Shown here: piece by piece, positions 9,001 through 18,000 of the stretch
Layout of the letters: each line of letters starts with the position of its first letter
Numbering within the stretch: position 1 is the stretch's first letter
Assembly: GCA_903879985.1 (NCBI GenBank)
Contig: CAIRNR010000007.1
Coordinates: 346,880 to 410,879 of the forward strand
Length of the DNA: 64,000 nt
Direction of reading: 5' to 3'
Source: an uncultured candidate division WWE3 bacterium
GTDB taxonomy: Bacteria; Patescibacteriota; WWE3; UBA101185; UBA10185
Made by a program: the position numbers

Positions 9001-12000
9001 TATAAACAAAGGAACCGCCCGACCAAACAGCACTATTTAAAGCAGAAAATTTGTTGTCTCCAGCAGGAACAACTTTTCCGAAATATTCTTCAAAAAGCTC
9101 CGGGTATTTTTTTAAAGCCTCGTCGGTAGATAAAAATATAACGCCCTCGTCGGCAAGTTCTGAAACCAGTGAGGAATAAGCCACTTCAGAATCATATTGT
9201 GCTTTTACACCTGCTAAAAACTCACGCTCGGCTTGGGGAACGCCCAATCTTTCAAATGTCGTTTTAATTTCTTCTGGAACATCGTCCCAACTTTTCTTTT
9301 CAAAATCTACAGGTTTTAGATAGTAATAAATATCGTCGAAATTTATGCCGCTTAAATCAACACCCCAAGTTGGCATTGTTTTACCCAAAAAAGTTTCTAG
9401 TGCCTTTAAGCGATAATCTAGCATCCAAGTAGGTTCATTTTTATTTTGGGAAATTTGTTTTACAACTTCGGAACTTAAACCTTTAAGCGTTTTTACAACT
9501 GAAGTGTCAGGCATGTTAAACCCAAACTTCTGTTCGTAACCACCACGAATATCTTTAAATTTTGTCGGCTGTTTCATATCCCTGCTCCTCAAGTTTATGA
9601 GCTAACTCTTTATCACCTTCATCAACAATTTTACCGTCATGCATAACATAAACAGAATCAGGTTCTATATTTTTTAAAATTCGGGAGTAATGAGTAATAA
9701 TCAAAATGGAACAACCGTTTAATTTTCGTAAATAGTTAACAGCGTTAGATACAATTTTAATAGCGTCTACATCTAAACCACTGTCAACTTCGTCTAAAAT
9801 AGCTAGCTTTGGTTCTAAGACTAAAAGTTGCAACATTTCCATTCTCTTTTTTTCACCGCCAGAAAATCCTTCGTTTAAAGATCTATGCATAAAATCTTCC
9901 TTCATGTCTAAAACAGACATTTTTTCTTTTAGGATTTCTCTGAATTTTATTGGTGAAAGGGTTTGGTTATGACTTTTGTTGTAAAGCATACGTAAATAAC
10001 TCGCAACATTAACACCTGGTATTTCGCTTGGATATTGAAAGGATAAAAACACGCCTTTTAATGCTCGATCCGTAGGATCCATTGATAACAAGTCTTCATC
10101 GTTAAAAGTCACGGAACCTGCTGTTACTTCGTAAGTTGGGTTTCCCATTAAAACATTAGCTAAAGTGCTTTTACCGGAACCGTTTTGACCCATTAAAGCC
10201 ACTACTTTTCCGTCGTTTACACTTAAATCAACACCGTGAAGTATCTCTTTAGTATCAATCTTAACTTGGAGTTCTTTAACTTTTAACATATTACATTGAG
10301 GGAATAGTTATGGTGCTTAAAATACAGGCATTACTGTGTGCAGGACACTTCTTAGAAACATCGTAATAAACTTCTTTTCCTAATTTTTCACTTTCCAATA
10401 AACCGGCATCGCGCATTTCCTTTAGGTGATAAGAAACTGTGGGCTGTGTTAAACCAACAACACTTACAAGAGAACTAACCGTATTTCGGCCTTTTTCTCT
10501 TAAATATTTATAAATTTTCATTCTTGATCCAACGCCCAATGTACTGAAACAATGCGTGCATGGAACCTTAGGGGTTGCTACCATAGTGCATAGATGATAA
10601 TCTATGTGTCTACACTTGTCAAACAACAATTATGGTTGCTCTCAAGCCTTAATTTGCTAGTACAGAGCCACCGCAGGTGTTAGAATTGGCTTATGAAAAA
10701 AATAAAAGCATTTATATACGTATTCACAAAGAGTCTGACATCGCCCAATTATTACAATGATGTCATAAAAACCGGTTTTGCCTTTTCGATTAAATATTAC
10801 CTTTCCTTGATAGCAATATTGTCTTTGCTTATAGCTACAGGAGTTACTATCCGATTAGTTCCACAGGTAAACAGTACAGTTTCCGACATCGCTACTCAAG
10901 CTAAAACGATATATCCGGATGACCTCATATTCACAATGCAAGATGGCACTTGGGATGTTAACAGACCACAACCTTTTATAGTTCCAATGCCTGATAGTAT
11001 TAAATCCTCATCCGACGCATCAGCACCAGTAAACGCCATAGTGTTCGATAAAAGCGGCACAATAAATGACCTTGATAAATACCAAACCGCAATCCTTGTT
11101 AACAGCGTAAATATGATTTCAAAAGACAGTTCAAATGGTGCTATTAAAGCTTATCCTCTAAAAGATATCCCAAATGGACAATTTGATAAATCACAGTTCA
11201 CCACAATGGTTGATTCAATTGTAGGACTAGAAAAATACGTACCACTCATAATTTTTGGCGCGGTATTACTTGGAATGCTGGCTTACTTCGTGATCGTAAG
11301 AATGATCTATTTGTTAATCGCGGCACTAGTTGTTTATTTTATAGCTTCGCTAATGAACTCAAAGTTGAGTTATGCAAACTCCTATAAATTGGCTTTGCAT
11401 AACATGACCTTACCTTTGGTATTATCAGCAATACTAACAATATCGGGTCTCAACATACCAGTACCTATGTGGTTTTTCTTAATTAACATCGGATCCGCAT
11501 TTTTAGCAATACAAGCAATAAAAAAAGAAACTGCAGTCGAAGCCGCCGAACCTAAACCAATTACACCAAAACCAGAAGAAGTAGCTACAGTAACCGAAGA
11601 TAAAGACAAACAACAACAGTAATTCGTTGAACAGCTAAATGCATTATGTTAGTATGGCTTGCAGCATTGCTTTAAGTATTCCTCTGTAGCTCAAGGGTAG
11701 AGCAACCGCCTGTTAAGCGGTAGGTTGCTGGTTCGAATCCAGCCGGAGGAGCCATTGAAAATTCCTTATAGTAACGACATAAAATAACTCACCCATAGTA
11801 GAAATCAGAATTAGTGGCTATAATTCAGTTATGAAAAAATTAGGCATAGGCTTATTAATAATGGCTATATTGGTGCTTATGTATTTTATTCTGGTAGCGT
11901 TAAACATAATTCCAACATATCAATGCGGATCAACAATGGGTATTAATGGCACTGTAAATTGGTGTCAGTGGTCTCGTGGAATTATTGTAGGTTAGCATAC

Positions 12001-15000: not shown

Positions 15001-18000
15001 ACCTTGCTATTTTTGGTAGGGCTGATCGCACTGAATTTCGGAATCATGTAAGTTTTAACCAAGATTTCAGCGTAAAGGATAAACGAGGCAATCAGTAGAT
15101 AAACCACTGCTTGCCTCCTAACTTAAGTCTATTTTGAAAATACTAAAGTAGGTTTAAGTTAGCAAAATTTAATCAACCGCAATCAATAAATTGCGAGAAA
15201 ATCTAACCGATAGGAGAGAAAAAGGATATTGTATTTACCTGGATGAACCCATACTTAAAACCCATGGGTGATATGTTGTACTACTCTTTTGTGGTAACAG
15301 GAATTCTTGGTATTCCTTTATGGATAATGGCATTTAACATGAAAATGTTTTACCAAGAATATGCAAAAGGAGTCACTCCGCCATATAATTCAACCATGTT
15401 ACTTATATACGTTGGATTTATGTGCACAGTAATTATTATGGGACTTTGGGATACCCTGCGCCCTGTGATGGCATACTGCGGCCTTCTTGCATTAGAGTTT
15501 TGGACAATCCGAAAAGCAGGGCTAGGCTACATCGAAAGAGAATGGGTGAGTGCAGTGAGAAATACCGTTCTTAGCCTTGCAGCGATTCCCATGCTTGTTC
15601 TGGTGCCGTTAGTAATCTTTATGGCATTAATACGGCAATAAAGTGTCAATCGGAGAAAAATATGATATTGATCTTGTCAGGTTTGGCGTTTTTTATGTTA
15701 GTACTTTCGGGTACAGGACTTATGCTCAGCTTGTATTTATACGCGCGCATGGAAGTAGACACCTACGAATGTGGCACCTACGGCGAAGCAGAAATCTGGG
15801 TGGCAAAACATTATGGAAAGTTTCGAAGGCTTTTACTGAAAGAGGGCACAGTAACAATATTATTAGTTACTGGATTTATAGGTGTGAGCTTCCTAATATA
15901 TAGCACCTTCTTTGCTTAAAGAACTTGAACCAAAAACCCCCTACGAACAAAAACGCAGAGGGTTTCTTTTTTGGCGTAATAATCACAAATAACTTAGTAG
16001 AATAAGAGTACAATGACGTTATGTTAGGTTTAATCTTACTTTTGATTGCAGGATCAGGACTTGTATATATCTCCAAATATAACTTCATGTTAGTTTCGGT
16101 TAATTTAGGGTTCTACACTATTTCTGAGATACCCCTGTTTTACGTAATCGCAGGAGCTATGCTTGTAGGCTTAATAATTTCCTATTTGGTATATCTAGGT
16201 CACGCCATTACCACATCCATTACTATTCGGGGCAAAGATGATGAAATTAAAAAGGAAAAAGAAGAAGTACTTGAATTAACAAAGCGTATTCATCAGCTGG
16301 AATTAGAAAACGAAAAAATACGAAACGGTTCTGACATCACACCACCAACGGACCAAAACGCACTGTGAAAAACCTTTTAGCAAAAATATATAAAGCCCTA
16401 CATCTTCCTAAAACCCTTCAGTTACGTATTATGCGTATATTCCAAGACCAATTTTTAGTTGGAGTCACCGGAATAATATTTAATGACAAGAATGAAATTC
16501 TTTTATTTAAACACACGTATCGCGCTCATTCATGGAGTTTGCCAGGAGGTTATTTAAAAGCCGGAGAGCACCCAAGAGAAGCGCTTGAACGCGAAATAAA
16601 GGAAGAGTCAGGATTAGTCGTTAGTGTTGATGATTCTCTTAAAACCCGTACAGATAGAGACTCGGCGCGCTTGGACATGTGTTATACGGGAGTTTTGATT
16701 GGCGACGACTTTGTACCAACTCACGAAGTTTCTGAGTATGGCTTTTTTACTCAAGATACGTTTCCGCTTTTGCGACAGAACCAGGTATTTTTGATAGATG
16801 AGGCATTGAAGCAGAAACTTTCTACGAATTTAAATTTAAATAGCTTATAAGTTGAGGAGCAGCAGCATTAATTTCTGGCGCAGAAATCCCGTGTTTTACT
16901 AGCTCAAGCATCTTTTCATGGAATTCTGCAGCTTTTCTACCATTTGGGTCCTCAGATAATTCCCATAGTCGCCAAACTTTTCCTGATGGGTCATAAATAT
17001 CATCTACTGGAGTATCCGGATCATCCTCGTTAACAGTAACTAAAACATTTTCTGGATTAAGTGAAAGCATAGTTTCCCACCAAACATCTTTACCAGATTG
17101 GGCTACCGCACTTGTGTGCAATCGATAAGTACCTGACAATACTTCCGTGGATTCATCCGAAACTACAGAATATGTCCCTTCGTCAAGATAAGTTTGAGGT
17201 AAAGGTTGTTCTGATTCAATAGTTGGTCTTAAAGCATTCATAATAAAATCTTAGCATAAGCTTCAAGCGATTTTTCTTTTCCCCAAAAAAAACATCTCGA
17301 AAATAAGAAAAAATATTATAACGTTAAGCGCACCTATGATAATAAATAAATATGTCTGTGTAGCAGTGTCTCCTTTTGTAACATTAAAACTGGCTGCAGC
17401 TGACTGATTTAAATCAGCATAATCATTAATTTTCATATCGATCTTATACATTCCCTGTGCAGCACTCGCAGGAATAGGCATGGAATCCATAAAGGAAGCT
17501 TGTGTCTCAATAGCTTTTAGCACCTTCAGGTAAGAAACCTCGGTGCCTTCCTTATTCTTAATGGAGTATTCGATTCTTAAATCTTTTCTACCATTATTTT
17601 CGGGCCATTTTACCTCGGTTTCAAAATACACTTTATCCCCCGGTTTCACGTCTGAAAATTTTTCGGGAATACTAAGTGTAGCCGTCATGGCAGAAACAGA
17701 TTTGGGCAAAATTACCAATCCAAAAAGAAATATTATTAGTGCGATTACGAAATATTTTATATACATAACTCTTACATTAATTTACTTGCGCTTAACCGTA
17801 GCCATACAACTAGACATTGATGAACGAAGTAGCAACGCAAGTATTACAAGTAATACAGAAATAATCAACGAAAGAACCAAATCCAAATAGATTAGTGCAA
17901 GTGTCTTGTTATAAATATCCTCCCGAATAGTTAAGTCTACAGCATGTTCCATTGCAGCCCAATCTCTATAGTTTTGATAAAGTTCTTGCTTATTTTTAGA

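Follow-up and report, generated by a model that had tools for sequence, protein, structure and literature searches.

The stretch analysed here, 64,000 nucleotides of a contig (CAIRNR010000007.1) from an uncultured candidate division WWE3 bacterium and called the window below, is ~37% GC and carries the SUF Fe-S operon, MutS/MutL, sigma-70, DnaG and ten scattered tRNAs. Between its tRNA-Asn gene and a Nudix gene lie ten open reading frames (ORFs) of 54-217 amino acids (aa), all on the + strand. Of the six possible frames of each ORF, only the annotated one scores a positive coding log-likelihood, and gene calls for all ten are also present in independent public assemblies. The first nine make up a variable islet of ~4.2 kb, which runs from 11755 to ~15975 and whose right end is marked by a terminator (T3, below). 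An earlier interpretation of the DNA, made without database searches (the sequence-only reading), had described at least nine small genes after tRNA-Asn; nine islet genes with supported coding frames stand, whereas the tenth ORF, which encodes a LapA-like protein, forms a core pair with the Nudix gene. The genes are listed below with their predicted transmembrane (TM) segments; "orphan" refers to the protein search described further on.

11680-11754, + strand: tRNA-Asn(GTT), left anchor (ARAGORN; Rfam, 71 bits)
11831-11995, + strand: gene 1, 54 aa, N-terminal TM helix
12145-12555, + strand: gene 2, 136 aa, no TM segment, orphan
12698-12919, + strand: gene 3, 73 aa, membrane protein, orphan (hydropathy; phmmer)
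12952-13269, + strand: gene 4, 105 aa, orphan with an N-terminal TM anchor and a C-terminal part that contains two Cys
13478-13906, + strand: gene 5, 142 aa, orphan with an N-terminal TM helix and, after it, an all-beta domain that contains two Cys
13925-14176, + strand: gene 6, 83 aa, three TM segments, orphan
14398-15051, + strand: gene 7, 217 aa, ~4 TM segments
15243-15641, + strand: gene 8, 132 aa (125 aa from an alternative start), 3-4 TM segments, orphan
15662-15919, + strand: gene 9, 85 aa, two TM segments, orphan, starting 20 nucleotides (nt) past gene 8
16021-16368, + strand: LapA-domain gene, 115 aa, tenth ORF (Pfam LapA_dom)
16365-16850, + strand: Nudix gene, right anchor (Pfam NUDIX, 1e-15)

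The LapA_dom match, at 42.9 bits (E=4.4e-11), clears the gathering score of 28, and the LapA and Nudix genes overlap by 4 nt. The same overlapping pair is found at a distant locus (L032/L033) that has nothing else in common with the window. Because the two genes are conserved together in distant relatives, we count the LapA gene as core and place it outside the islet. The pair as a whole is highly conserved in Microgenomates. Homologs of the Nudix protein number 2074 at E<=1e-8; the best 120 are 81-99% identical and come from many Microgenomates lineages, including Collier-, Shapiro- and Beckwithbacteria; in the same kinds of organisms, by comparison, the product of the DUF1189 gene next to tRNA-Asn is only 24-58% identical. 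Within the LapA-Nudix pair, the codon is the same for only 64 of the 133 identical residues, and this divergence of synonymous sites points to strong purifying selection, not recent transfer.

Relatives of the locus were found through the DUF1189 gene, which lies just upstream of tRNA-Asn. They are few and come from metagenome-assembled genomes of WWE3 and other Patescibacteria. We compared L006 (58% DUF1189 identity), L007 (38%), L008/L009 (34%) and the GTDB loci L010-L013; a DUF1189 profile search of genome contigs gave 24-34% identity among the matches listed. In seven of eight distinct loci (32-58% identity), tRNA-Asn comes after DUF1189; the exception is L010 from RAAC2_WWE3. Upstream, ~11 kb of gene order is kept in all five loci that reach that far (L006-L010): two tRNA-Met genes, DivIC, an XerC-like gene, tRNA-Ile(TAT), S30AE, NifU, SufS, SufBD, SufC, an HTH gene and DUF1189. 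(The anticodon of this tRNA-Ile, at 4961-5037, was assigned by ARAGORN, and its position is kept in the relatives that cover it.) In L006, the nearest relative, the DNA is collinear with the window from its first base at 71-74% identity, and this collinearity ends at the last base of tRNA-Asn (blastn, L006 11130-11204 corresponding to window 11680-11754).

Past the tRNA, neither the islet proteins nor the genes from 16.8-25.7 kb have a tblastn match in the relatives' loci, and the genes downstream of the tRNA in L006, L007 and L008 have none in the window. The islet is absent from the syntenic loci of all relatives, whose flanking protein shares no more than 58% identity with that of the window. 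A conserved gene order here had been named beforehand as an observation that would speak against an accessory region; the downstream order is conserved in no relative examined. In L007, tRNA-Asn is followed by three small membrane genes, one of them MgtC-like, and in L008 by six small genes, including some for EamA and lycopene-cyclase-domain proteins. These two loci have a single post-tRNA gene in common despite 82% identity of MurJ, and both return to a common PilO-S20-MurJ block after the variable genes. Small membrane proteins again follow the tRNA in L012.

The nearest relative provides a further example. In L006, the gene for a large serine integrase of 553 aa (phrog_95, 2.6e-66) shares sequence with the tRNA-Asn 3' end. 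It belongs to an integrated element of ~7.4 kb (11163-18557), whose other products include several orphans, a SocA_Panacea-domain protein and an AAA_25 helicase/primase-like protein. The element showed no direct repeat derived from the tRNA. These comparisons demonstrate that tRNA-Asn is an integration site in the clade and that the stretch after it is a region of gene turnover.

We then considered the islet proteins. As the sequence-only reading had maintained, almost all have TM segments: by hydropathy, eight of nine contain at least one, against 26 of the 52 other ORFs in the window (Fisher p=0.036). This enrichment is real but modest, half of the genome's proteins being membrane proteins. 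An exhaustive phmmer search with the nine concatenated proteins against 1.84 billion representatives recovered relatives for the 54-aa and 217-aa proteins only. The other seven matched nothing but themselves in this collection, and their 90% clusters hold 1-4 members each. None of the nine has a match at or above the curated cut-off in Pfam, NCBIfam, PHROGs or PADLOC, and no housekeeping annotation, an outcome that had been named in advance as contrary evidence, was found for any of them in these profile libraries. Structure models are of low confidence; several of the proteins carry a Cys pair in a predicted outside domain.

Gene 1 belongs to a small family. It has eight homologs at 46-56% identity, with further members in JGI metagenomes, and the family shares the C-terminal motif PTYQCGSTMGxNGxVNWCxWxxG, in which both Cys are invariant. 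Members are 52-129 aa long and consist of a TM helix followed by IPTYQCGSTMGPNGPVNWCGWYKG with the two invariant Cys; no Pfam or NCBIfam model covers them. They are sparsely distributed, occurring singly and in unrelated contexts (loci L019 and L023-L030). One of them, at L029, lies 4.4 kb downstream of another tRNA-Asn in otherwise unrelated surroundings. In the window, a TATAAT box stands 7 nt ahead of the gene 1 ATG, so placed that the mRNA may be leaderless. Gene 7 has six distant homologs at 25-34% identity, all on contigs of <2.4 kb, and in two other organisms (L021, L018) these homologs likewise follow CCTATAG-type promoters. A conserved pair of 83-aa and 217-aa genes was considered and rejected, the gene upstream of the L018 homolog being unrelated (E=0.14).

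Variable islands often carry toxin/immunity or defence systems, and the sequence-only reading had suggested membrane-targeted toxin/immunity proteins, bacteriocin-like peptides or host-interaction factors. In a toxin cluster, small membrane peptides would be pore-forming toxins or bacteriocins, and immunity proteins would be encoded beside them. The sizes and membrane topology of the islet genes are compatible with a toxin, bacteriocin or anti-phage defence cluster, as is the conserved Cys-x12-Cys C-terminal knob of the 54-aa product. The suggestion nevertheless found no match at a curated cut-off in PADLOC, Pfam, NCBIfam or PHROGs. PADLOC returned nothing even at E<=0.01, and the matches in the other three libraries are weak, sub-threshold and on hydrophobic stretches; none of the families matched is one of toxins, antitoxins, bacteriocins or immunity proteins. 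The neighbourhood has no modification enzyme, ABC exporter or double-glycine leader, and the 54-aa family occurs singly, in unrelated contexts. We consider a cluster of this kind very improbable.

The islet genes are accompanied by a recurrent set of signals:

12044-12079, + strand: promoter P1, CTATAGGTTGCT-N18-TATAAT (nhmmer 9e-19)
12037-12148, + strand: promoter-leader "head" of ~110 nt with P1 as its first part, homologous to four L006 heads
13388-13423, + strand: promoter P2, CTATAGGTTGACT-N17-TATAAT, 11/12 consensus positions (nhmmer 4e-15)
14295-14330, + strand: promoter P3, CTATAGTTTGACT-N17-TATAAT, 11/12 consensus positions (nhmmer 3e-18)
12099-12118, + strand: leader hairpin AAhCGC-loop-GCGrr, copy 1
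12652-12671, + strand: leader hairpin AAhCGC-loop-GCGrr, copy 2
14350-14372, + strand: leader hairpin AAhCGC-loop-GCGrr, copy 3
15175-15197, + strand: leader hairpin AAhCGC-loop-GCGrr, copy 4
13288-13327, + strand: terminator T1, AACCCCAA...TTGGGGTT then T7 (fold z -4.4)
14195-14232, + strand: terminator T2, 87% identical to T1
15934-15972, + strand: terminator T3, a diverged family member (weak fold, z -0.9)
12571-12644, + strand: two-hairpin RNA element, copy 1 (-26.8 kcal/mol, z -6.0)
15085-15162, + strand: two-hairpin RNA element, copy 2 (-30.8 kcal/mol, z -5.7)
27396-27471: two-hairpin RNA element, copy 3, outside the islet

The three islet promoters are of the CTATAGGTTGAC-spacer-TATAAT type, with the form CTATAG[GT]TTGAC/T-N-TATAAT, and the motif CTATAG[GT]TTG occurs eight times in the window where 2.0 occurrences are expected. 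The terminator family, which folds as a hairpin followed by a T-run, has three copies against none expected. For the leader hairpin, 0.7 copies are expected on the + strand of the window and five are present. Four of these lie in islet leaders, 25-45 nt upstream of a start codon; the hairpin could be a shared operator or mRNA leader signal. These promoters, terminators and two-hairpin elements, all of which had been noticed in the sequence-only reading, are thus real and non-random, but further copies of the promoter type and of the two-hairpin element lie outside the islet. To credit each gene with a promoter and a terminator of its own was an overstatement: three promoters, three terminators and two two-hairpin elements serve ~6 transcription units, a number that follows from three gene pairs among the nine being spaced only 18-32 nt apart. 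Genes 5 and 6, for example, with a gap of 18 nt, are probably one unit.

Outside the islet, the promoter type recurs at 26878, 29409 and 35035, where it appears as a CTATAGGTTGA-type promoter ahead of three other small window genes (26941, ~29468 and 35116). Two of these three genes have a G+C content at third codon positions (GC3) of 0.48 and 0.46. The promoter of tRNA-Asn itself is different (TTGAAC-17-TAGTAT, kept in L006). Judged on this 64-kb sample, the islet type looks class-specific, not a general strong promoter.

A comparison with L006 revealed that these signals are shared between lineages. Beyond the integrase element, L006 contains small + strand genes, each behind a CCTATAGGTTGACT-N-TATAAT promoter, whose heads are mutually 62-90% identical over 65-80 nt. 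The window heads at 12037, 13382 and 14289 are homologous to them (nhmmer 1e-15 to 1e-25). For the P1 head, blastn identity is 70% over 114 nt, and the likeness reaches the promoter spacer TTCC(C)TTTTTA and the leader hairpin AAACCGC...GCGGA, a hairpin that is present in three of the four L006 heads (18850, 19413 and 20797). The head common to window and L006 is thus a unit of ~110 nt that consists of a CCTATAGG-extended promoter, a conserved spacer and a leader hairpin. Some of these cassettes also share a conserved "tail" of terminator plus spacer: the spacer past T1 (13314-13362) is 78% identical to L006 19291-19339. By contrast, the ORFs behind the window and L006 heads are unrelated in sequence, length and topology.

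The composition of the islet genes sets them apart as well. Their GC3 is 0.30-0.54, with a mean of 0.418 against 0.299 for core genes (Mann-Whitney p=1.2e-4), and it also exceeds that of the hypothetical genes at 16.8-35.6 kb (mean 0.325, p=0.012); their coding score per codon is lower than that of core genes. The same shift is seen in the relatives. The L006 cassettes have a GC3 of 0.41-0.55 against 0.34 in core genes, and a single-gene cassette in L007, equipped with a terminator and a CTATAGGTTGA-N-TAAAAT promoter of its own, has 0.41 against 0.15. In L008, the gene that comes first after the tRNA, which likewise has a terminator to itself, shows 0.42 against 0.18. The L007 cassette has the promoter alone, not the full head, and the first L008 gene has no such head. 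Across these genomes, the cassettes consist of unrelated small genes whose GC3 stays at ~0.41-0.55 whatever that of the host (0.15-0.34). A GC3 shift of this kind, in the islet and in the relatives' cassettes alike, is hard to account for unless the genes were acquired horizontally.

We conclude that the region from 11755 to ~15975 is probably a lineage-specific flexible genomic islet in a Microgenomates-like chromosome, at a synteny breakpoint at the 3' end of tRNA-Asn, whose small genes were most likely acquired horizontally and turn over fast. In several respects it resembles a tRNA-linked genomic island: it starts at a tRNA 3' end, is atypical in composition, has variable content beside a conserved flank, carries accessory, unannotated, envelope-type genes, and uses a tRNA that also serves an integrase element in a relative. 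It differs in being only ~4.2 kb long, in having no integrase, direct repeats or mobility genes, and in varying, as far as the compared loci go, between species only. No recombinase was identified among the ten ORFs with Pfam, PHROG or NCBIfam; the only one in the vicinity is the conserved Xer-like gene at 2853-3728. The proposed search for a repeat of the tRNA-Asn 3' end found the 25-nt end (<=3 mismatches) once in 64 kb, and no long direct repeat brackets the region, which bears out the by-eye finding of no integrase and no terminal tRNA repeat. Since both are lacking, we do not call the islet an integrated element; nor is it an integron, a prophage or a recognisable toxin/defence locus. The accessory or integration hotspot that had been suspected at this tRNA is thus supported between species, by the synteny break, the relatives' content and the L006 integrase, but not for the islet itself as an integrated element, which has neither recombinase nor attachment (att) site.

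Several observations weigh against a recently acquired islet. The 54-aa gene is a member of a conserved family and not an orphan. The LapA-Nudix flank adjoins tRNA-Asn in none of the relatives examined, and there is no "empty site" among the compared loci. Public contigs of the species (L001-L005, L031) are identical except for scaffold N-gaps and one contig end, so there is no presence/absence polymorphism, which would be classic evidence for an accessory region, to point to. The nearest relative is distant (58% DUF1189 identity), which makes rearrangement combined with fast divergence of resident genes conceivable. Much of 16.8-35.6 kb is hypothetical too, and unannotated genes are in this sense not special to the islet.

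The strongest rival builds on these points. It holds that the genes are resident, fast-evolving and lineage-specific, part of the "dark matter" of the candidate phyla radiation (CPR), and that the break at tRNA-Asn is an old rearrangement, with neither recent acquisition nor a hotspot. CPR genomes are rich in unannotated membrane proteins (PMC6744442), half of the window ORFs have a TM segment and most of 16.8-35.6 kb is unannotated; no mobility gene or att site lies in or beside the islet, and no strain variation documents turnover, the nearest relative being distant. The GC3 shift is nevertheless limited to the islet and a few other small genes behind CTATAGG promoters, and the hypothetical genes at 16.8-25.7 kb are unshifted (GC3 0.22-0.34). 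The site differs even between the fairly close L007 and L008, which carry compositionally foreign single-gene cassettes there, and the genes at the corresponding positions in L006 have other lengths and topologies, beyond being different in sequence. We regard resident genes as unlikely, though with an appreciable chance of being the correct account.

A decayed mobile element is a second possibility. A prophage, satellite or integrative plasmid could have inserted at tRNA-Asn, with its integrase and att sites disappearing afterwards and the islet genes surviving as cargo or "morons". The same tRNA does host the serine-integrase element of L006, and the islet genes are co-oriented, atypical in composition and equipped with promoters and terminators of their own, as morons are. 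The islet, however, has no gene in common with the L006 element, and the promoter-headed cassettes of L006 lie beyond that element, outside it. The best PHROG matches reach only E ~1e-4, on hydrophobic stretches, and blastn found no DNA match in phage or plasmid collections (50,697 phage records). Prophage morons, which resemble the islet units in being single genes of atypical composition with their own promoter and terminator, differ from them in having a surrounding prophage; the islet has none, nor a match to a viral family or in a viral collection. We consider this origin improbable. A phage origin of the promoter type alone was also rejected, a search of 2.9 million IMG/VR viral contigs giving 33 single, scattered exact matches, none of which extends beyond the promoter core.

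The two-hairpin element raises the question of an integron-like array. This element of ~75 nt, which lies between co-oriented genes, consists of a GC-rich hairpin 1 followed directly by hairpin 2. Hairpin 1 shows compensatory changes between copies (GAGGCA/TGCCTC in copy 1 versus GGGACA/TGTCCC in copy 2). Hairpin 2 has a stem of 17-19 bp with three G.U pairs, and because of these it is fully paired only as + strand RNA. Hairpin 2 is not followed by a U-run, and the element has no credible Rfam match, even at a permissive threshold; it may be an intercistronic processing or stabilising element. The integron interpretation would instead take the hairpins as attC-like sites for a tyrosine recombinase, in an array of small, co-oriented cassettes. 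Core sites of attC follow the consensus RYYYAAC/GTTRRRY. Hairpin 2 resembles these in starting with ...CCTAAC and ending with GTTAG..., and an Xer-like recombinase gene lies 9 kb upstream (2853-3728).

These parallels do not extend far. In most copies the R positions of the core sites do not match, the G.U pairs restrict full pairing of hairpin 2 to + strand RNA, and the element follows only two of the nine genes, in cassettes that carry their own promoters. The Xer-like gene holds the same position in all five relatives that reach it, whatever follows the tRNA, and for this reason looks like a housekeeping XerC/D. No attI or Pc arrangement is present, the flanks being DUF1189, tRNA-Asn and LapA/Nudix. 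In sum, the islet is like integron cassette arrays in having small, co-oriented, mostly orphan ORFs between structured repeats, and differs in lacking IntI, attI and Pc, in its own promoters and terminators, and in an RNA-like hairpin after two genes only. We give an integron hardly any credence.

How a flexible islet of this kind might arise can be outlined as follows. Its nine genes form ~6 self-contained units, with eight products in or anchored to the cytoplasmic membrane. The units are driven by an extended sigma-70-type promoter (CCTATAGGTTGAC-N-TATAAT), often with a small leader hairpin, and end in a member of the intrinsic terminator family or in the two-hairpin RNA element. The genes would have been acquired horizontally, one or a few per event, and would be replaced quickly. 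The tRNA-adjacent site may be permissive for insertion because insertions just past the tRNA disrupt nothing. As the route we favour recombination after DNA uptake, which is widespread in the CPR (PMC6744442). The conserved tRNA and the recurring promoter-leader and terminator modules could provide the homology for it, and may in this way make the site a favoured one.

Two known systems come close to this outline. The minimal mobile elements known from Neisseria (Saunders & Snyder 2002; Snyder 2007; both as described in PMC3787668) are like the islet in having a variable gene set at a fixed site, a conserved flanking gene and no mobility genes, and are compatible with exchange by transformation and homologous recombination. 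They are defined by exchange among close relatives. The islet departs from them in that only the left flank (DUF1189-tRNA-Asn) is common, the right flank being different in every relative; L007 and L008 do show different content between conserved flanks. Putative mobile promoters (PMC3488235, PMC3575422) offer a second parallel, with similar promoter segments of ~65-110 nt before unrelated genes, both within L006 (up to 90% identity) and across genomes. Here the islet differs in that the reused unit includes a leader hairpin and is tied to small GC3-rich genes after a tRNA, and in having no associated transposable element.

A more radical proposal combines these features. The islet units could be undescribed self-contained cassettes that are swapped among Patescibacteria by a route needing no dedicated recombinase, such as uptake of DNA followed by recombination between heads and tails, and that accumulate past tRNA-Asn as a swappable surface or envelope set. 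We think it rather doubtful that this full scheme is correct. The feature worth following is the homologous promoter-leader module before unrelated, compositionally foreign genes in different lineages.

As for the proteins themselves, protein families enriched in the CPR are mostly unannotated and membrane or extracellular (PMC6744442), and on this ground we favour a membrane or surface role. Our guess is that the islet proteins serve the cell envelope or surface in an episymbiotic lifestyle, rather than acting as toxins. CPR bacteria, or Patescibacteria, are thought to live attached to other cells, and little is known of how their gene content changes; a literature search on CPR genomic islands at tRNAs found nothing relevant. 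If the flexible-islet interpretation is right, the tRNA-Asn site would mark where these tiny genomes take up genes, and the islet proteins would be a handful of candidates for roles at the surface or in host interaction. Through the shared promoter-leader module, more such genes could be found, and perhaps a common regulator. Movement of units from promoter to terminator would, if true, represent a simple mode of gene exchange not yet described in these bacteria.

Other small + strand genes with raised GC3 (0.41-0.48) are present elsewhere in the window, at 26878-27387, 35035-35565, 25919-26293, 30327-31132 and 34239-34961, and, like the ORF near 29468 behind the promoter at 29409, may be further members of the same accessory cassette class. 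Toxin-antitoxin pairs (ParE/PhdYeFM, AbiEii) are inserted in otherwise conserved neighbourhoods of relatives (L008 2829-3336, L032 6354-7215); gene turnover on a small scale therefore occurs at other sites too.

Beyond the Nudix gene, 16822-35600 is a long, mostly unannotated region whose genes have no counterparts in the relatives' loci. It encodes dCache, PAS, CARDB-like and MG2-like proteins, a 950-aa protein (31195-34047) and a pair of paralogs with 37% identity (21912-22754 and 22875-24722). The tRNA count of the window is ten by ARAGORN and nine by Rfam at the gathering score, the difference being the gene at 53473-53563, which Rfam misses. ARAGORN also assigns the unusual anticodon ACT to a tRNA-Ser at 51650-51737.

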